Part shown: positions 9,201-29,379 of the stretch, in pieces
How positions within the stretch are numbered: the first letter of the stretch is position 1
Layout: every line of letters starts with the position of its first letter
Assembly: GCF_000317575.1 (NCBI RefSeq)
Contig: NC_019748.1
Coordinates: 2,299,199 to 2,363,198 of the forward strand
Direction: 5' to 3'
DNA: 64,000 nt
From: Stanieria cyanosphaera PCC 7437
GTDB lineage: Bacteria; Cyanobacteriota; Cyanobacteriia; Cyanobacteriales; Xenococcaceae
The notes under the pieces: model-generated
Seen by the model: only the letters and a program-made list of their open reading frames with translations
What the model was told of the DNA's origin: nothing
Databases searched by the model: none
Program-made: the position numbers and the translations under genes

Positions 9201-9452
9201 TGTTTACATCTCTAGATTAACCTTAAATAGATTAGCATTAAGTTACAAATTTGTGAGTTAATTAAGTTCTTAACTTATAATCATAATTAAAAAATTTCGA
9301 GCAGATTTTTTTTACTGCCTGCTTAAAATTTAAAGTATAAATTCCTAGTTTGGGTTGAACAAGTTCCTATGCTATTGCCAAACAAAATCATGTTATAATC
9401 TCTATTTAAATTTATTTAAGTAAGTCAGCTTAATTTCCTAACTTCAAGGAAA

Positions 9453-9559
9453 ACGGAGGAACCGATTTAGGGGCATATCTCTATAGTTTAGTTAGAGAAG
9501 AACATCTCTCAGTTCTAGCCCGTCAGCTAACTTCGTCGGCATTGAGAGGAGACTGAAGG
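9453..9559 (+). promoter_or_regulatory. candidate structured cis-regulatory RNA (riboswitch-like), copy 1 of 3, in the 5' leader of the exoD/Ca-ATPase unit
   Basis: Conserved ~107-nt element ACGGAGGAACC...AUCUCUAU[loop]UAGAGA-AGAAC-AUCUCUCA-GUUCU-AGCCCGUCAGCUAAC...GAGAGGAGACUGAAGG. A TATAAT -10 box sits at ~9391. Confidence 0.5.
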
Positions 9560-9958
9560 GAAAGCATTTTTTAAGTAATGTCTCAACCTATTTCAGTGCA
9601 TCCTAATTATTTGACTTGACTCTAAGTTAAATTTCATTTTTTGTACCGATTTTGAGGCATTGCTGATGAAATTACAGGAAATTTAGTTATTAAACTTAAA
9701 CAATCTCTGAGCAAAATTTATGTTTTGTGGCATTTTGTTGTATGTAAATCTAGAAAAACTGTGAGGTTTTTTATTTTTGGCAAACTGTCGATTGTTTAAA
9801 TAAGACTTTGTATCATTAAATCATTTCAAAATATAAGAATTCTCACTTTTAAGGCGTTTTGGTCAAGAGTATTTTTATAACTATAGATTGAATGCGGTTC
9901 AATCAAGTTGTTTGAATATTTAATACCTAGCTAAAATTGCCTTATAAAAAAAACAACA

Positions 9959-10564
9959 ATGAATCTCAGATTTTCTCAAGATATTGAATCTCTTCTTCAA
10001 AGATTGTCTGATCAGCCTCTAACTCTTAGGCAAATTTTGGCAGAAACTTCAGAACGAGGATTTAGTCTAAGTTTAGGTTTGCTGGCGTTGCCTTTTCTTT
10101 TTCCTATGCCTCCAGGATTATCTACTATTTTGGGGTTGGGTTGCTTAATTTTGGCAGTCCAAATGGCAATGGGAAGAAAATCACCCTGGCTACCTAAAAA
10201 AATAGCTCGATTTGAATTTCCTCGTAAATTCAGTCTAAAACTACTGCACAATGCCAAACGAGTAAATAAATTTTTAGGAAAAGTTGTTCGTCATCGCTGG
10301 TTGTCAATTGCAGAAAGTTCTTCTGTCTGGCGAATTAATGGCTTTTGTATTGCCTGGCTAACAATTTTGCTCATGTTGCCAATTCCTTTTACTAACCCTA
10401 TTCCTGCAAGTGCAATTTTACTTTTAGCAGTGGCTACTTTAGAAGCCGATGGTTTGTTGATTTTCTTTGGCTATGGATTAACCGTATTGAATACTTTATT
10501 TTTTGGTTTTATTGGTTATGCCCTTTGGCAAGCACCTCACTTGTTACCCAATTTATTTAGATAA
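9959..10564 (+). CDS. ExoD-family (PF06055-like) membrane protein
   Basis: 201 aa with 4-5 TM segments. The LALPFLFPMPPGLSTILGLG and PWLPKKIARF pattern is typical of ExoD. Confidence 0.65.
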   Translation: MNLRFSQDIESLLQRLSDQPLTLRQILAETSERGFSLSLGLLALPFLFPMPPGLSTILGLGCLILAVQMAMGRKSPWLPKKIARFEFPRKFSLKLLHNAKRVNKFLGKVVRHRWLSIAESSSVWRINGFCIAWLTILLMLPIPFTNPIPASAILLLAVATLEADGLLIFFGYGLTVLNTLFFGFIGYALWQAPHLLPNLFR

Positions 10565-10581
10565 ACAACTAATTACCAACT

Positions 10582-13374
10582 ATGAATGTTCCTAAAACTT
10601 CCTTCGTTGCTTCTGGTTCAATTCCTGAGATTAGTAAAGATTGGCATACTTTGAACGTTGAAGAATCCTTAGCAATTCTTACCAGTGATTTTAATCAAGG
10701 ATTAACAGCGAAGCAAATTGAGCAAAGAAAGCAAGCTTTTGGTACAAATGAACTAAAAGAATCTGGCGGTCGCAGTGCTTTAGTAATTTTATGGGAACAG
10801 TTTACCAACATCATGTTAGTGATGCTGATTGCCGTGGCAATAGTATCAGCAGTTTTAGATTTTCGTCAAGGCACATTTCCTAAAGACGCAGTAGCAATTT
10901 TTGCAATTGTGATTGTCAACGGAATTTTAGGTTATTTACAGGAAAGTCGGGCAGAAAAAGCTTTAGCAGCCCTAAAACGTCTTTCTGCTCCCCAAGTGAG
11001 AGTGATTAGGCAAGGAAAAACTACTGAAATTCCTGCCAAGGATTTAGTACCAGGGGATATCATGCTGTTAGAAGCAGGAGTACAAATCGCTGCCGATGGA
11101 CGTTTGCTAGAAGCCCAAAACCTACAAGTGCGAGAATCGACTTTAACAGGAGAAGCAGAAGCAGTCCTTAAACAAGCTGATGTTATTTTACCTCATGATA
11201 GTTCTTTAGGCGATCGCATTAATCTAGTTTTTCAGGGAACGGAAGTAGTTTTAGGCAGAGCTAAAGTAATTGTTACCAAAACAGGGATGGACACGGAAAT
11301 CGGTCATATCGCTGCTATGATACAGAGTGTAGAAACCGAACCGACTCCTCTACAACAAAGAATGACTCAACTGGGAAATGTCTTGGTAAGTAGTTCTTTG
11401 GGTTTGGTTGCTATAGTGGTGATTGGTGGTGTATTACGAACAGGATGGCAGTTTTTTGAACAATTGTTGGAAGTGTCGTTAAGTATGGCAGTTGCCGTTG
11501 TTCCAGAAGGATTACCTGCGGTAGTGACAGTTACCTTAGCCATTGGTACTCAAAAAATGGTGCGTCGCCATGCTTTAATCCGTAAACTACCAGCAGTAGA
11601 AACTTTGGGTTCGGTAACTACGATTTGTTCCGATAAAACTGGAACTTTGACTCAAAATAAAATGGTAGTGCAGAAAGTTGAGACAGGTTCTTATCACTTT
11701 AACGTAACAGGAGAAGGTTATAACCCTGTAGGAGAATTTTTAAGTAAGCAGCATCAGCAACTGCAAACCGAACCAGAAGTTCAACAACTAATGCTTGCTT
11801 GTGTAGCGTGTAACGATGCTCTACTACAACAGAAAAAAACCCCCAAACAAACAGAATGGCATATTTTAGGAGATCCAACTGAAGGCGCGTTACTCGCTTT
11901 AGCTGGAAAAGCAGGAATTTTTAAAGAAAATCTAGACAGTAAAATGCCTCGGATGGGAGAGTTTCCTTTTTCTTCTGAAAGAAAACGGATGTCTGTGATT
12001 GTTGATAACGGAGACGGAACAAGCTCTTACTCCATGTTCACCAAAGGTTCACCAGAATTAATTTTAGAATGTTGCGATCGCATTTTGCTTAAAGACCAGT
12101 TAGTTCCAATTACTGCTGAACAAAGACAGCACATTCTAACTGAAAATGACGGCATGGCAAGTAATGGTTTAAGGGTACTGGGTTTTGCTTACAAACCTCT
12201 AAGCAGTGTTCCCGACGCAGAAGATCAAGAAAATACTGAACGGGAATTAGTTTGGTTAGGTTTAATTGGAATGCTTGATGCACCTCGTCCCGAAGTTAAA
12301 GAAGCTGTCAAACGTTGTCGAAGTGCAGGAATTCGTCCTGTGATGATTACAGGAGATCATCAATTAACTGCTATGGCGATCGCATCGGAACTAGGTATTG
12401 CTAGTCCCTACGAGCAGGTATTGACAGGACAAAGATTACAGGCAATGTCTGACTTGGAATTAGAAGAAGCGGTCGATCAAGTAAGTGTGTATGCTCGTGT
12501 TTCTCCAGAACATAAACTTCGGATTGTTAAAGCACTTCAAAAACGAGGTAAGTTTGTCGCCATGACAGGGGATGGAGTCAATGATGCACCAGCCCTGAAA
12601 CAAGCTGATATCGGTATTGCCATGGGTATTACAGGAACAGATGTCAGCAAAGAAGCCAGCGATATGATTTTGTTGGATGATAATTTTGCTACGATTGTGG
12701 CTGCGACGGAAGAAGGCAGAGTAGTTTACGATAATATTCGTCGTTTTATTAAATATATTTTGGGCAGTAATATTGGTGAAGTTTTAACGATTGCTGCTGC
12801 ACCTTTGATTGGTTTAGGTGGTGTGCCACTCTCTCCTTTACAAATTCTCTGGATGAACCTAGTTACTGATGGTTTACCTGCGCTGGCATTAGCAGTAGAA
12901 CCCGCCGAACCCAACGTGATGAAACGCCCACCCTATAGTCCCAGAGAAAGTATTTTTGCTCGTGGTTTAGGACTTTATATGGTCAGAATTGGGATTATTT
13001 TTGCCATTCTTGCGATCGCACTGATGGTTTGGGCTTATAATCACGCTCAAGCTGATGGTAATCCAGAACGCTGGAAAACTATGGTTTTTACAACTTTATG
13101 TTTAGCACAAATGGGTCACGCCCTGGCAATTCGTTCTGATACCCAATTGACTATTCAAATCAATCCTTTTTCTAATCCCTATGTTTTAGGAGCAGTTACT
13201 TTAACTACCATCTTACAACTACTTCTAATCTACGTTGAACCGTTACGTAATTTCTTTAATACTCATTGGTTGAGTCCTACAGAATTAGGAATTTGTGTCG
13301 GTTTTAGTCTGTTGATGTTTGTTTGGATTGAATTTGAAAAGATTGTTTTACGTTTGTTGAAAAAGCGAGGCTAA
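10582..13374 (+). CDS. P-type (P2-type, PacL/SERCA-PMCA-like) Ca2+-transporting ATPase
   Basis: 930 aa with DKTGTLT phosphorylation motif, [28 protein letters not shown], and 10 TM segments. Confidence 0.9.
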
Positions 13375-13454
13375 ATCAATTGAATCTAAGTTTTTATTTC
13401 TGCCCTCTGCCTTTTGACAATAATTTATGTTCACAAATCAAATAGGATTGCTAT

Positions 13455-13934
13455 ATGAAAATAGTGCTTTGTCTATTGATTTCAGTAATGCTTATCTTAG
13501 GATATGGACTTCAGCCAGTGGAGGCTAAACCAGTCCAAACCGATGCAGTACTAGTCTGTTATTCTGGAGGTCAAGAAATTGTCCGCAAAACTGTTGTGGA
13601 AGGTCCTTTTGCCGATGAATACAAATTTGCTCATGAAGTTAAAGTTATTGATGAGCAAGGAGAACATCAATTAAATTTTGCTGGTGGACTATGTATGATT
13701 GATCGTGGTGCAGTTGCGCTAAAAAGCCAGCCCAAACTAAGCGATCGCCTTAGCTGTTATTCTGGAGGTAAAAAGGTGATTGATTTTGAAGTTTATGGTC
13801 GAGAAACAACTGTTGATGAATATCTAGAAGGAAGAACTTTTGTAGCCAAAGCTCGTGGCAAAGCCTTTAATTATGATTCTCTTCATCAATATTTAGTTTT
13901 TGGTGGGGGCGCGTGTTTGGGAGAAGAAACCTAG
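13455..13934 (+). CDS. secreted hypothetical protein with an internal duplication
   Basis: Signal peptide. Two CYSGG(Q/K)(E/K)(I/V) repeat units. Confidence 0.45.
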   Translation: MKIVLCLLISVMLILGYGLQPVEAKPVQTDAVLVCYSGGQEIVRKTVVEGPFADEYKFAHEVKVIDEQGEHQLNFAGGLCMIDRGAVALKSQPKLSDRLSCYSGGKKVIDFEVYGRETTVDEYLEGRTFVAKARGKAFNYDSLHQYLVFGGGACLGEET

Positions 13935-14042
13935 AAAAAAAAATAAGTAGCAAATTTGACTACCCGTTTTGAAAAAATGTGTTAAACTTCTGTTTAAATC
14001 TAGAGTAAGTTAGCCTAATCCTTGCTTAATAAAATAAGCAAG

Positions 14043-14150
14043 AGCGGGGGAACCAAATTCGGGGCGTATCTCTATCGATGTAAATAGAGAAGGACATCTC
14101 TCAGTCCTAGCCCGTCAGCTAACCTCGTCGGCTTTGAGAGGAGACTGAAC
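14043..14150 (+). promoter_or_regulatory. candidate structured cis-regulatory RNA (riboswitch-like), copy 2 of 3
   Basis: Same element as copy 1, with hairpin loop CGAUGUAA. Lies ~150 nt upstream of the small ORF at 14299. Confidence 0.5.
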
Positions 14151-14298
14151 AGATAGCACTATAATTGCTGTTTTCAGTATCCTTGGCTGCTAAATACTCT
14201 CTACATTAAGCTGTCTCGGGGTTCTGAAAATTATCTCAATTGGGATAATTCTAAATGATACCTAGGATAGCCTAGCTAGTCATTAGGAGAATCAGTAT

Positions 14299-14535
14299 AT
14301 GTTTAACATTGGCGATCGCGTTCGACATAAAGCAACTGGCGAAGTAGGTACAGTCATCGGTTATGGACATCAGTTTGTTAATGATTTTTACTTGACCACC
14401 ATCATAGTTAGATTATTGAATTCTACAGTAACCGAATCAGTAGTAGAAGATTTATATACTGAATGGCTTGGTTGGCAGAATGATACTCCACCAAAAGCCG
14501 AGCGAAATCTATCTAATTGCTTATATGCAGCCTAA
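14299..14535 (+). CDS. small hypothetical protein (78 aa) downstream of RNA element copy 2
   Basis: GDRVRHKATGEVGTV motif (DUF-like SH3/KOW-type beta motif). RBS GGAGAA upstream. Confidence 0.4.
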   Translation: MFNIGDRVRHKATGEVGTVIGYGHQFVNDFYLTTIIVRLLNSTVTESVVEDLYTEWLGWQNDTPPKAERNLSNCLYAA

Positions 14536-14584
14536 AAAGTTGCAAATATAATACGTTGATAACAAGCCTAATTCTGAAACAGAA

Positions 14585-14692
14585 ACGGGGGAACCAAATT
14601 GGGGGCTAATCTCTATAGTTATCAGTAGAGAAGGACATCTCTCAGTCCTAGCCCGTCAGCTAACCTCGTCGGCTTTGGGAGGAAACTGAAGG
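14585..14692 (+). promoter_or_regulatory. candidate structured cis-regulatory RNA (riboswitch-like), copy 3 of 3, in the 5' leader of the ABC transporter operon
   Basis: Same element. A TATAAT at 14547-14552 sits ~30 nt upstream, and the permease start codon ~85 nt downstream. Confidence 0.5.
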
Positions 14693-14775
14693 AAAATCTT
14701 TTAACAAATTATCCTCATCAGTATTCCTTAATTGTACTGGTTGAATCTATATTTTAACTAATGGGGGTAATATAA

Positions 14776-15609
14776 ATGAATTTATCAACCCTTGCTGTAG
14801 CGGGGCAAGTGGCTTGGGGACGTATCAAGCCAGTAGTTGTTCGAGACACTGTTTTACTACCAGCAGCAGGATTTTTAGGATTAATTGCTGTTTGGTGGGT
14901 GATCGCTTTATTTCGACCTGAATTAATGCCCACACCTCCACAAGCATTGATGGAGAATTTAGATTATATTTTTCATCCATTTTATCGTAGAGGACCAGGA
15001 GATCTTGGTCTTGGTTGGTTATTACTAGCTAGTTTACGACGCGTTATTATCGGTTTTTTAATTGGGGCTGCGGTAGCTATTCCTGTAGGATTTTTAATTG
15101 GGATGTCGAGAAGCGCAATGTTAGCGATCAATCCCCTAATTCAAGTTCTCAAACCCGTATCACCGTTGGCGTGGTTACCGATTGCCCTAGCTATTTTTAA
15201 TATTGCCGATCCTTCTGCTATTTTTGTTATTTTTATTACTTCCTTATGGTCAACTATTATTAATACTGCTCTAGGAGTATCTAGCGTCCCAAAAGAATAT
15301 CAAGACGTAGGACAAATGCTAGAGATGCCAGCCTGGAAAAAAATTGTCAAAATTATTCTGCCTGCTAGCCTACCTTATATTTTTACGGGCTTACGGATTA
15401 GTTTGGGGATTGCTTGGTTAGTAATCGTGGCAGTAGAAATGCTCACAGGTGGAATTGGCATTGGCTTTTTTGTCTGGGATGAATGGAGTCGTCTCAATCT
15501 TAGTTCGGTGTTTTTGGCTGTATTTGTAATTGGTATAACTGGCTTGATCCTTGACTACCTTTTGGGATTAATCCAAATCTGGGTAACCCATCGTCCTGCT
15601 AGTTCTTAG
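14776..15609 (+). CDS. ABC transporter permease, NrtB/CmpB/CynB (nitrate/sulfonate/bicarbonate/cyanate) family
   Basis: 277 aa with 6 TM segments and the EAA-like loop of binding-protein-dependent permeases. Confidence 0.85.
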   Translation: MNLSTLAVAGQVAWGRIKPVVVRDTVLLPAAGFLGLIAVWWVIALFRPELMPTPPQALMENLDYIFHPFYRRGPGDLGLGWLLLASLRRVIIGFLIGAAVAIPVGFLIGMSRSAMLAINPLIQVLKPVSPLAWLPIALAIFNIADPSAIFVIFITSLWSTIINTALGVSSVPKEYQDVGQMLEMPAWKKIVKIILPASLPYIFTGLRISLGIAWLVIVAVEMLTGGIGIGFFVWDEWSRLNLSSVFLAVFVIGITGLILDYLLGLIQIWVTHRPASS

Positions 15610-15647: not shown

Positions 15648-17048
15648 ATGAATCAAAAACTAAAACGTAGAGCCTTTTTACAAGGCTTATCCGCAACTGC
15701 GTCGATGATGGCAATTTCTGGTTGTGCTATTAGTGGCAGTAAAGCTCCCAAAGTTTTAACCGAGGAAGCTTTAGCAGTTGAACCAATCGTCAAACCTGAA
15801 AGTTTAGAAAAACCCAATCTAACTATTGGTTATGTTCCTGTTAACGACTGCGCTCCCTTTGCTATAGCTTGGGAGAAAGGTTTTTTTCGCAAGTATGGCT
15901 TGAATGTAACTTTAAGTCGCGAATCAAGTTGGGCAAATTCTCGTGATGGCGTAATTTTTGGTCGCCTCGATGCTTCTCCTGTAGTTTCTGGGGCAGTGAT
16001 GAATGCTAGAGCGGGTGCTGAAGGCGCGCGTCATGCTCCTTTATGTGCTGCCATGACTATTCACCGTCACGGTAACGCCATGACTATGAGTAAAGAGTTA
16101 TGGGATGCAGGTATTCGTCCCTGGCAAGATTATCAAGGAGATTTGGAGCAATTTGGCAGCGATTTTGCTGGTTATTTTCAAAAAGCTCCCGAACAAAAGC
16201 GAGTTTGGGCTGTAGTACTGAGTTCTGCTATTTATGAATACTTTGCCCGTTATCTAGTAGCAGCTACTGGATTAAATCCTGACGAAATGTTTCGCATTAT
16301 TATTACTCCTCCACCCCAGATGGTTACGAATATGCGGATCGGAGCGATGCAAGCTTATATGGTGGCAGAACCTTGGAATACTCGTGCTATTTCAGGCAAT
16401 GAGGGTATTGGGTTTACTTTTGCTCAAGGAAGAGAACTTTGGCGAGGACATCCCGATCGCCTTTTGGCAGTGATGGAATCTTTTATTAACGAGAATCCTA
16501 AAACTTATCGTTCTTTAGTCAAGGCGATGATCGAAGCTTGCCAATATTGCAGTAAACCAGAAAATCTCGAAGAAGTAGCCCAAATTATCTCCGAGCGTTC
16601 TTTTACTGGGGCAAAACCTGAATTAACTAGAGCGGGAATTGTTGGTGATTATAACTATGGTGGTTTTGATGATCAGAAGCGGATTGTTAAAAGTCTAGAC
16701 ACCACTCTCTTCTTCGATCTTCCTGCTGAAGTTTCGAGTATTCCTAACGATCATTCCACCTTTTTATGGCAGTCACACAATCTTTGGTTGATGACTCAAT
16801 CGACACGTTGGCAACAAATTCGTCAATTTCCCAAGAATGCTGATCAAATTGCGCGGATAGCTTGGCGAACGGATTTATATCGAGAGATTGCTGGAGAAAT
16901 GGGCATAAAATGCCCGACAGAAGATTATAAAGTTGAGCCAGCCGAAACATTTATCGACAATAAAGCTTTCGATCCTAGCGATCCAGTTGGTTATCTCAAT
17001 AGTTTTAAGATTAGGGCGAATGCACCTGGTTTATTTTTTATGTCGTAA
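15648..17048 (+). CDS. ABC transporter substrate-binding lipoprotein, NrtA/CmpA/CynA family (Tat signal)
   Basis: RRAFLQG twin-arginine motif plus SGCA lipobox. Blocks IGYVPVNDCAPFAIAWEKGFF, SSWANSRDG and FDPSDPVGYL resemble CmpA/NrtA. Confidence 0.85.
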   Translation: MNQKLKRRAFLQGLSATASMMAISGCAISGSKAPKVLTEEALAVEPIVKPESLEKPNLTIGYVPVNDCAPFAIAWEKGFFRKYGLNVTLSRESSWANSRDGVIFGRLDASPVVSGAVMNARAGAEGARHAPLCAAMTIHRHGNAMTMSKELWDAGIRPWQDYQGDLEQFGSDFAGYFQKAPEQKRVWAVVLSSAIYEYFARYLVAATGLNPDEMFRIIITPPPQMVTNMRIGAMQAYMVAEPWNTRAISGNEGIGFTFAQGRELWRGHPDRLLAVMESFINENPKTYRSLVKAMIEACQYCSKPENLEEVAQIISERSFTGAKPELTRAGIVGDYNYGGFDDQKRIVKSLDTTLFFDLPAEVSSIPNDHSTFLWQSHNLWLMTQSTRWQQIRQFPKNADQIARIAWRTDLYREIAGEMGIKCPTEDYKVEPAETFIDNKAFDPSDPVGYLNSFKIRANAPGLFFMS

Positions 17049-17090: not shown

Positions 17091-17915
17091 ATGTTTTATT
17101 CCAGCACTTTTACTAGTAATACCTCTACTAATTACAATTCAGAAGAATTTTTAGTGATTGAAAATCTAGTTAAATCTTTTCCTCAACCTGATGGTAGTCG
17201 GACGGTAATTCTTGATGGAATTAATTTAACGATTGGTGCAGAAGAATATATTTCCGTAATTGGTCACTCTGGTTGCGGTAAATCGACTTTATTGAGAATA
17301 ATTGCTGGTTTAGATAAACCAACCTCTGGAATGGTAACTCTAGAAGGAAAAGAAATTCGTAAGCCTGGTGCAGAAAGGATGATGGTTTTTCAAAGCTATG
17401 CCCTACTACCTTGGCTAACTGTACGAGAAAATATTCGTTTGGCAGTAGATGAAGTCTTAAAAAAAGCTACGCGTGCCGAAAAAGTCAGTTTAGTTAACGA
17501 GCATATTGCAATGGTTAATTTAACTGCTGCTGCCGATAAATATCCTGATGAACTTTCTGGGGGGATGAAACAAAGGGTAGGAATTGCCCGTGCTTTGATT
17601 ACTCGCCCGAAAATGTTACTGATGGATGAACCATTTGGAGCATTAGACGCTTTAACTAAAAGGAAACTGCAAGCACAAGTACTAGAAATTTGGGAAAATC
17701 ATCGACAAGCAGTCATGATGATCACCCACGATGTAGACGAAGCAATTTATATGTCCGATCGCATTATTTTAATGACTAATGGTCCGGAAGCAAAAATTGG
17801 AGAAATTATTACTGTACCTTTTGACCATCCCCGCGATCGCGCCTCGCTACAAAATTCTCAAGAATATTATGAGATTAGAAAAAAAGCTTTAGATTTTCTG
17901 GAACACTATAGTTAA
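17091..17915 (+). CDS. ABC transporter ATP-binding protein (NrtD/CmpD/CynD-like, short form)
   Basis: Walker A GHSGCGKST, signature LSGGMKQRV, Walker B LLMDEPFGALD. Confidence 0.9.
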   Translation: MFYSSTFTSNTSTNYNSEEFLVIENLVKSFPQPDGSRTVILDGINLTIGAEEYISVIGHSGCGKSTLLRIIAGLDKPTSGMVTLEGKEIRKPGAERMMVFQSYALLPWLTVRENIRLAVDEVLKKATRAEKVSLVNEHIAMVNLTAAADKYPDELSGGMKQRVGIARALITRPKMLLMDEPFGALDALTKRKLQAQVLEIWENHRQAVMMITHDVDEAIYMSDRIILMTNGPEAKIGEIITVPFDHPRDRASLQNSQEYYEIRKKALDFLEHYS

Positions 17916-17941: not shown

Positions 17942-18394
17942 GTGACCAAAATGAGCGAACAAGATCCTTTTGACTTAAATCGTTTCATCAACACACAAAA
18001 CCAAGTTTTCGACCGCGTTTTGGCAGAGTTAAAAAATGGTCGCAAGCGATCGCATTGGATGTGGTACACATTTCCTCAGCTTGACGGATTAGCTCAAAGT
18101 ACAACTTCAAAATATTACGCCATAAAAAGCCCCGAAGAAGCGATCGCCTATCTTAATCATCCAGTTTTAGGAGCGAGAATTTTGGAATGTGCAAATACGA
18201 TTGTTGCCATTGAAGGAAAAACAGTTTCAGAAATCTTTGGTTATCCTGATGATCTCAAACTTAAATCGTCTATGACATTATTTTCTGAAGTTTCCGCAGA
18301 GCCTATATTTATTCGTGTCCTTGATCGGTATTTTCATGGCGATCGAGATGATAGAACACTTCAACTATTAAAAAAGCTCAAAAATACAAAATAA
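17942..18394 (+). CDS. DUF1810-family protein
   Basis: LNRFINTQN...GRKRSHWMWYTFPQ pattern characteristic of DUF1810. Confidence 0.65.
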   Translation: MTKMSEQDPFDLNRFINTQNQVFDRVLAELKNGRKRSHWMWYTFPQLDGLAQSTTSKYYAIKSPEEAIAYLNHPVLGARILECANTIVAIEGKTVSEIFGYPDDLKLKSSMTLFSEVSAEPIFIRVLDRYFHGDRDDRTLQLLKKLKNTK

Positions 18395-28686: not shown

Positions 28687-29034
28687 ATGAATTATCTCCT
28701 CCTGGTTGTTGCCATCCTTTCCATTACTATTGGGATTTTTGTTGGTGCATTGATAGTATGGTTTATTTACTTTTGGCGACGACGACAAATTGTAGATAGT
28801 TTAATTAAACCTGAAGATATAGTAGGTCTTTATGGCACGGTAGAAATTCCTTTTGATAGTGGCAGTAGAGGAAAAGTGCGAGTTAATCTTAAAGGATCGA
28901 TGTTGGATTTATTTGCTGTAACCGATGAAACCAGGCATTTCAATTTCGGCGATCGCGTTTTTATTATTCAAATGAAAGAAAATAAAGTCTGGGTAGTAGG
29001 AGAAGACTCGATTACAGTGATCAGTGACCAGTGA
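28687..29034 (+). CDS. NfeD-like (YuaF-type) membrane protein, flotillin partner
   Basis: N-terminal TM segment then an OB-fold-like region (GLYGTVEIPFDSGSRGKVRV). Lies immediately upstream of a flotillin gene. The last codons (VISDQ*) are supplied by the heptamer array. Confidence 0.65.
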   Translation: MNYLLLVVAILSITIGIFVGALIVWFIYFWRRRQIVDSLIKPEDIVGLYGTVEIPFDSGSRGKVRVNLKGSMLDLFAVTDETRHFNFGDRVFIIQMKENKVWVVGEDSITVISDQ

Positions 29035-29379
29035 CCAGTTATCAGTTATCAGTTATCAGTTATCAGTGACCAGTTATCAGTGACCAGTGACCAGTTATCA
29101 GTTATCAGTGACCAGTGACCAGTGACCAGTTATCAGTTATCAGTGACCAGTTATCAGTTATCAGTGACCAGTGACCAGTTATCAGTTATCAGTTATCAGT
29201 GACCAGTGACCAGTTATCAGTTATCAGTGACCAGTGACCAGTGACCAGTTATCAGTTATCAGTGACCAGTTATCAGTTATCAGTGACCAGTTATCAGTGA
29301 CCAGTTATCAGTTATCAGTGACCAGTGACCAGTTATCAGTTATCAGTTATCAGTGACCAGTTATCAGTTATCAGTGACT
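29015..29379. repeat. heptanucleotide tandem repeat array (CAGTGAC / CAGTTAT units, ~52 copies), STRR-like
   Basis: Perfect 7-bp periodicity over ~365 bp mixing two unit types. Then degenerates (CATCACT/CATCGCT). Confidence 0.95.

Follow-up and report, generated by a model that had tools for sequence, protein, structure and literature searches.

Three riboswitches of the known c-di-AMP class in leaders of transport genes of Stanieria cyanosphaera PCC 7437

A 64-kb stretch of the genome of the cyanobacterium Stanieria cyanosphaera PCC 7437 (contig NC_019748.1), analysed here as one window and numbered from its first letter, carries three similar structured RNA elements within 5.3 kb. All three lie on the plus strand in 5' leaders: copy 1 precedes exoD and a gene for a P-type ATPase, copy 2 precedes an open reading frame (ORF) of 78 amino acids, and copy 3 precedes an operon for an Nrt/Cmp-like ATP-binding cassette (ABC) transporter. 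An earlier note on this DNA had placed the elements and genes in this arrangement, which the repeat, Rfam and protein family searches bear out, and had proposed a riboswitch of no known class. A scan with the Rfam models (cmscan) identifies each copy as a full-length match to RF00379, the ydaO/yuaA family of riboswitches for cyclic di-adenosine monophosphate (c-di-AMP). Judged by sequence, the three elements belong to this known class and are not a new riboswitch, and binding of c-di-AMP by the window copies is predicted from that membership.

The genes downstream are all encoded on the plus strand. exoD (9959-10564; PF06055, E 2.5e-59) is followed by a gene for a 930-aa P-type IIA cation ATPase (10582-13374), which starts 17 nt after it; the product has P-type ATPase domains, and its nearest solved relative is the Listeria Ca2+-ATPase LMCA1 (612 bits). 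The 78-aa ORF (14299-14535) has a Shine-Dalgarno (SD) sequence, AGGAG, at 14285-14289 on the same strand. Its product shares 100% identity with Sta7437_2061 of Stanieria cyanosphaera PCC 7437 (Pleurocapsales), has only five homologues among 5.8 billion proteins, all from Stanieria or relatives, and matches nothing in Pfam or NCBIfam; UniRef labels it 'NifZ family'. The ABC operon encodes an NtrB-like permease (14776-15609; TIGR01183, 231.6 bits), an NMT1_2 (NrtA/CmpA-family) binding protein with a Tat/lipoprotein-type signal (15648-17048; PF13379, E 2.8e-66) and an NtrCD-like ATPase (17091-17915; TIGR01184, 356.7 bits). The binding protein resembles the NrtA-like C-terminal regulatory domain of NrtC/CmpC (235 bits) more than it does NrtA or CmpA (170 bits), so that its similarities point to no particular substrate. 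A DUF1810 gene (17942-18394) begins 27 nt beyond the ABC ATPase gene, and the two may share a transcript; membership of the DUF1810 gene in a conserved operon is unsupported, since it is absent from 80 of 80 orthologous loci.

The three aptamers span 9417-9556 (copy 1; 73.5 bits, E 3.6e-15), 14002-14148 (copy 2; 79.6 bits, E 7e-17) and 14555-14689 (copy 3; 89.2 bits, E 1.5e-19), all on the plus strand. Each covers model positions 1-134 of 134 and scores about twice the gathering score of RF00379 (38 bits). No other Rfam family matches the elements at E <= 1, and a permissive search added two tRNAs only. A 22-nt core, CCCGTCAGCTAACYTCGTCGGC, occurs exactly three times in the window, always on the plus strand (starts 9519, 14111 and 14652), with a chance expectation of 0 and matches in none of 100 shuffles. 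A repeat finder groups the copies into a single 114-nt family (D1; 9444-9557, 14036-14149 and 14577-14690). Mean column identity in the three-way alignment is 86%, and copies 2 and 3 are 88% identical in the repeat comparison.

At the level of the consensus, the copies match the family in its conserved sequence blocks. The upper-case blocks of the Rfam consensus, CGgGGGAaCC, GGGG and CCCGuCAGCUAACCuCG, are matched in all three copies, and the core blocks CGGGGGAACC, GGGG and CCCGUCAGCUAACCUCG are likewise intact in each; the segment UGAAU reads CAUAU, CGUAU or CUAAU. The shared 5' block (ACGGRGGAACC..GGGGC) and 3' block (CCCGUCAGCUAACYUCGUCGGC) singled out by the earlier note correspond to this conserved core. 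Its extent of the element held for the 3' part, about 105 nt of aptamer, and failed at the 5' end, which Rfam places 30-40 nt earlier (9417, 14002 and 14555); the closing helix P1 (AGCC...GGCU) and the first, variable hairpin had been left out. The proposal of no known class had been reached by comparison with the ykkC, yybP-ykoY, M-box and glutamine riboswitches, omitting ydaO, and it falls with the significant RF00379 match, the very finding that its author had named as decisive against novelty. The ligands suggested with it (Ca2+, Mn2+, bicarbonate, nitrate and guanidine) are not indicated, because the copies are RF00379 matches.

As in the ydaO/yuaA class at large, the window copies combine P1, six further helices, a pseudoknot between a hairpin loop and the 3' tail, and the same conserved core blocks. 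They form 27 nested pairs, with one non-standard pair in copy 1 and one in copy 2; the checked coordinates of P1 are 9427-9430/9538-9541, 14012-14015/14130-14133 and 14565-14568/14671-14674 in copies 1 to 3, all on the plus strand. A covariance model, of the kind the earlier note had suggested, was built from the three copies with an Rfam-derived structure and searched against loci from 80 cyanobacterial species genomes with orthologues of the binding protein (70-87% identity). It found homologues with covariation: 100 matches in the window and these 80 ABC loci, all on the gene strand. Across the 100 copies, 94.1% of cells form standard pairs, compared with 39-54% in slid controls, and 28 of 36 pairs have changes on both sides. 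Both compensatory hairpins described previously are real and are helices of the family: UCUCUA/UAGAGA with its variable loop, and GGAC/GUCC, which becomes GAAC/GUUC.

The nested helices of this alignment were fitted to the model, which biases their figures in favour of the structure, whereas the pseudoknot and a further outer helix lie outside the model and are fair tests. The pseudoknot joins the loop CUCUC to the 3' tail GAGAG; among 99 distinct sequences it is 97.8% paired, with compensatory changes in three of five pairs. It lies at 9506-9510 with 9544-9548 in copy 1, 14098-14102 with 14136-14140 in copy 2 and 14639-14643 with 14677-14681 in copy 3, on the plus strand throughout; the strand reads GGGAG in copy 3, where a G-U pair keeps the pairing. 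The earlier proposal that UAGAGAAGG pairs alternatively with the AUCUCUCA loop is unsupported, given that the loop pairs with the tail instead, and the mutually exclusive folds built on it are not the switch. The second test concerns a 4-bp helix between AGUC, 5' of P1, and GACU, after the pseudoknot strand, which encloses both P1 and that strand (9423-9426 with 9551-9554 in copy 1; 14008-14011 with 14143-14146 in copy 2; plus strand). Among the 99 distinct cyanobacterial copies its pairing reaches 85%, each of the four pairs shows compensatory changes, and the helix is absent from the Rfam consensus structure.

The placement of the riboswitch is conserved among the cyanobacteria sampled. Of the 80 ABC loci, 77 carry a copy upstream of the binding-protein gene, nearly always immediately before the permease gene, and the remaining three have short upstream flanks or a locus-specific gap. 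When 80 loci with ExoD homologues are added, 104 of 104 matches are on the gene strand (3 of 3 in the window and 101 of 101 in the 160 related loci), and all sit in leaders; the genes behind them include those for the ABC importer and the P-type ATPase. Further copies in the related loci, often in a cluster with the ABC operon, precede genes for CitMHS/ArsB-type transporters, a GT4 glycosyltransferase and Usp-family proteins; examples are L007 (7802-7964), L028 (6761-6977), L070 (4-176), L012 (6482-6662 and 12325-12486), L048 (12384-12544) and L077 (12323-12458). Strand bias and strong covariation together support a selected, structured riboswitch aptamer in the leaders of transport genes. Class membership, the aptamer fold with its pseudoknot, and the conserved placement are established.

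This distribution agrees with what has been published. Two papers, both citing Nelson 2013, report c-di-AMP riboswitches in cyanobacteria and tie them to osmoprotectant synthesis and transport (PMC5986932, PMC4284465), and the further copies before transporter, glycosyltransferase and Usp genes fit this osmoprotectant and ion role. A c-di-AMP riboswitch upstream of Synechocystis slr0753, a putative chloride efflux transporter gene, has been verified (PMC10117731). In the RefSeq annotation of Synechococcus PCC 7002, an ABC transporter operon has a c-di-AMP riboswitch on its 5' side; the leader is expressed while the transporter genes are silent, as expected for an OFF switch (PMC12789804). The association of the riboswitch with an ABC operon in cyanobacteria is thus already in the literature.

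The association with exoD is narrow. A copy lies directly upstream of exoD in 3 of the 80 metagenomic ExoD loci, the three closest to the window (75-76% identity), and in these exoD is again followed by the gene for the same P-type ATPase; given this count, riboswitch control as a general feature of exoD was rejected. Separately, exoD and the same ATPase gene adjoin, in either order, in about 14 loci (L084, L086, L091, L092, L147-L159), nearly all without a riboswitch, which suggests a functional link between ExoD and the cation pump. The leader type of copy 2 is conserved in related Pleurocapsales loci, and the small ORF appears truncated in three of them (L005, L007 and L002).

Each copy follows a -10-like box on the plus strand. 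An extended box, TGTTATAAT (9391-9399), lies about 24 nt upstream of the copy 1 aptamer, a weaker one, TGTTAAACT (13980-13988), precedes copy 2, and TATAAT (14547-14552) precedes copy 3, 12 nt past the stop codon of the 78-aa ORF. Such boxes had been pointed out before; they are present in the sequence, and a consensus promoter scan calls none of the three, because they have no -35 element. No terminator-like site was found between the 78-aa ORF and copy 3 in a terminator scan, so read-through transcripts would meet two riboswitches in series. Taken as a whole, the locus very probably carries three independent c-di-AMP riboswitches, each with its own -10-like box, that may work mainly as translational OFF switches.

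Sequence and folding favour a genetic OFF switch that would act mainly on translation. Without ligand, the 3' tail of the aptamer, GGAGACUGA, would pair with a downstream box, UCAGUGUUCC. The resulting tail/anti-tail helix would stack on a hairpin, H1, and lock away the 3' strand of H1, which is complementary to the ribosome-binding site, so that translation could start. With c-di-AMP bound, the tail would be held in the aptamer by the pseudoknot (GAGAG:CUCUC) and the outer helix (GACU:AGUC). The composite hairpin would then lose about 9 bp, and the freed anti-SD strand would mask both the SD sequence and the AUG. Untranslated mRNA would be degraded, leaving leader RNA present while the genes are silent.

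Comparison of permease leaders supports the parts of this relay. Across the phylum, a conserved spacer, mostly of 79-95 nt, separates the aptamer from the permease AUG, with a constant order of elements: the tail GGAGACUGA, the covarying hairpin H1, the box CAUCAGUGUUCC, a hairpin H3 (GCUGGUAC...GUACCUGC), the SD sequence and the AUG. The tail is conserved in 100 cyanobacterial copies. In 53 leaders, RNAalifold predicts, unprompted, the helix of the tail with the UCAGUGUUCC box enclosing H1. This helix is 94.7% paired, compared with 35-55% when slid, and its double changes exceed those of all 500 shuffles; H3 is 86.6% paired, with some covariation. A pairing of the tail segment GACUGA with the 3' strand of the pseudoknot-donor hairpin was rejected, since the tail is constant while that strand varies.

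The modelled effect falls on the start region. Each leader was folded with the tail, as a proxy for an aptamer that does not hold it, and with the tail removed, as a proxy for one that does. Accessibility of the ribosome-binding site is 0.45 with the tail and 0.35 without it (Wilcoxon p 8e-10, 53 leaders); it is higher with the tail in 43 of the 53 and lower in none, and the difference is confined to positions -15 to -1. Moreover, the H1 3' strand with the anti-tail box binds the ribosome-binding site of its own genome at -12.4 kcal/mol, compared with -10.1 kcal/mol for sites of other species (permutation p 2e-4) and -8.0 kcal/mol for shuffled sites.

Copy 3, in the permease leader of the window, is a good fit to the model. 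Its tail, GGAAACUGA (14681-14689), is followed by the anti-SD sequence AUUAUCCUCAU (14708-14718), which is the 3' strand of H1, by the anti-tail box UCAGUAUUCC (14718-14727) and by the ribosome-binding region of the permease gene (14761-14778), with AUGGGGGUAAU at 14761-14771 and the AUG at 14776, all on the plus strand. The anti-SD sequence is an 11-bp complement of AUGGGGGUAAU (-15.6 kcal/mol), and removal of the tail lowers the unpaired probability of the ribosome-binding region from 0.48 to 0.36.

The tail, H1 and the anti-tail box are also present in copies 1 and 2. In copy 1, the proposed switching sequence GGAGACUGA (9548-9556) and the anti-tail box UCAGUGCAUCC (9593-9603) would form a duplex of -11.4 kcal/mol. 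Between them lies an anti-SD strand, AGUAAUGUCUCAA (9574-9586), a 13-bp complement (-17.9 kcal/mol) of the SD region at 9652-9664; strand and box, both on the plus strand like the tail, are conserved in L081, L083 and L085. This SD region, UUGAGGCAUUGCU, belongs to a six-codon upstream ORF (uORF) on the plus strand (9652-9686 together; AUG 9666, UAG 9684-9686; MKLQEI*), which ends 270 nt upstream of exoD. Its SD sequence, AUG and stop position are conserved in four loci (the window and the same three relatives), while the codons differ: the relatives encode MKFYLN*, MRFYTG* and MVFYTN*. The SD context GAGGCAUUGC..AUG has its counterpart where the permease gene of some other cyanobacteria starts, and copy 1 therefore looks as if it sits in a duplicated permease-type leader.

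In copy 2, the tail (14140-14148) and the anti-tail box UCAGUAUCC (14174-14182; conserved in L002 and L004-L007), both on the plus strand, form a duplex of -13.0 kcal/mol that appears in the minimum free energy fold when the tail is available. A second UCAGUA box at 14291-14296, between the SD sequence and the AUG of the 78-aa ORF, is identical to 14174-14179 of the anti-tail box; from its sequence, the aptamer tail could in principle pair there, beside the start codon.

Several points weigh against the translational model. It rests on thermodynamic folding of truncated RNAs, which stand in only crudely for the aptamer with and without ligand, and the size of the modelled effect is modest. The proxy is unchanged for copy 1 (0.21 in both states) and copy 2 (0.39 and 0.42), and for this reason the output mechanism is claimed for neither. 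In copy 1, the anti-SD strand pairs with the SD sequence in either modelled state, and switching would therefore need kinetic folding. Hairpin H2 (CAGUG/UACUG), proposed as the bound-state partner of the anti-tail box, is 86% paired, but its covariation does not go beyond shuffles and it was dropped as a necessary step; an SD mini-hairpin (ACUC/GAGU) is only 62% paired and was rejected. The outer helix has only 4 bp, and copy 3 leaves it unpaired at one position (AACA/AACU). The promoters of the three copies are inferred from the -10-like boxes. Finally, the RNA-seq pattern of PCC 7002, in which leader RNA accumulates while the ABC genes have no reads, fits attenuation equally well (PMC12789804).

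Attenuation is accordingly the first alternative to weigh. It holds that these c-di-AMP riboswitches terminate or attenuate transcription prematurely, in the manner of the Bacillus subtilis ydaO/kimA leader, rather than acting on translation. The family is described as a genetic OFF switch; copy 1 lies 400 nt from exoD, too far to mask the exoD start directly, and weak A/U-rich hairpins with U runs can be read in the spacer between them (about 9760-9785). Nevertheless, a terminator scan of the three stretches that lead from an aptamer to the following start codon (9557-9958, 14149-14298 and 14690-14775) found no terminator-like stem with a U-tract, so that a platform of the Bacillus type was not recovered, and the conserved platform helices of permease-type leaders are not followed by U runs. 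The covariation of the platform strand with the ribosome-binding site of each genome, and the restriction of the modelled effect to the start region, also speak for translation. We regard attenuation, or decay of the transcript, as rather unlikely but still a serious contender.

That the elements might instead form a new class with another ligand, such as Ca2+, Mn2+, bicarbonate, nitrate or guanidine, is very improbable. The idea draws on the downstream genes, which include an Nrt/Cmp-like ABC transporter and a Ca2+-ATPase-like pump, and in other riboswitch families variants of a known fold recognise different ligands. Against it stand the full-length match of every copy to RF00379, with scores near twice the gathering score, intact core blocks and no other family at E <= 1, and the assignment of published cyanobacterial copies to c-di-AMP.

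A dispersed repeat (repetitive extragenic palindrome, miniature inverted-repeat transposable element or recently duplicated leader) without regulatory RNA function, which three copies in 5.3 kb, the identity of copies 2 and 3 and the apparent remnant of a permease-type start region in the copy 1 leader might evoke, is refuted by strand bias and covariation: the 64 kb hold only these three copies, all in leaders on the gene strand, the 104 matches here and in related loci share that orientation with abundant compensatory changes, as the earlier note had expected, and all three leader types have their own conserved counterparts in other genomes.

Within the favoured translational reading, a more specific proposal can be made for cyanobacteria. 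The copies may represent a sub-type in which the pseudoknot and a lineage-specific outer helix hold the tail and thereby drive a terminator-free translational relay of tail, anti-tail and anti-SD strands. In the Stanieria lineage this unit may have been duplicated to gate the uORF before exoD and the Ca2+-ATPase-like pump, linking c-di-AMP to the export of Ca2+ or other cations. This is a tentative proposal, to which we give a little less than an even chance. On such a reading, ligand and fold are the familiar ones, and any novelty would lie in the output mechanism and the regulon alone. Platform model, outer helix and uORF, all derived in silico, would be modest additions.

Compared with known systems, the window copies share with the ydaO/yuaA class a position upstream of ion and osmolyte transport genes and an expected OFF logic. 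Unlike the Bacillus-type members, they have no intrinsic terminator and carry a conserved tail/anti-tail/anti-SD relay that apparently acts on translation; the AGUC/GACU outer helix sets the cyanobacterial copies apart from the Rfam consensus of the class. The PCC 7002 copy, of the same family and phylum, resembles copy 3 of Stanieria in preceding several ABC transporter genes, and its RNA-seq pattern is that of an OFF switch (PMC12789804). The Synechocystis copy before slr0753 belongs to the same family (PMC10117731) and has a parallel in the copies before CitMHS/ArsB-type transporters in related loci. Stanieria differs from both in having three copies in 5.3 kb: two follow one another in front of the ABC operon, and one precedes a unit of uORF, exoD and P-type ATPase, an arrangement shared only with its closest relatives. 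The guanidine-I (ykkC) riboswitch of cyanobacteria is likewise a leader element before ABC transporters of the nitrate/sulfonate/bicarbonate family, which is why the earlier note had weighed it; the window copies differ from it in fold and core, which are those of RF00379, and have no ykkC-family match at E <= 1.

Two features elsewhere in the window were recorded in passing. A tandem array of the heptamer CAGTTAT (29015-29378) comprises about 52 copies with a higher-order period of 56 nt; short tandem heptamer repeats are known from cyanobacterial genomes, and this array looks alike. Adjacent genes for tRNA-Tyr(GTA) (1607-1691) and tRNA-Thr(GGT) (1720-1791) lie on the plus strand.

The main outcome of this analysis is a correction, since an element flagged as unassignable is identified at once by a routine Rfam scan as RF00379. 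Beyond this, the comparison brings an Nrt/Cmp-family ABC importer into the c-di-AMP regulon in most of the cyanobacterial lineages sampled (77 of 80 genomes), and in Stanieria the regulon gains the unit of exoD and P-type ATPase as well as a small protein. Cyanobacteria are not known to have Rho, and the leaders suggest that these switches work in cyanobacteria through a conserved translational relay, not a terminator. If true, the relay and the uORF would be useful for engineering cyanobacterial riboswitches and for finding the substrate of the transporter, although neither would surprise a specialist.

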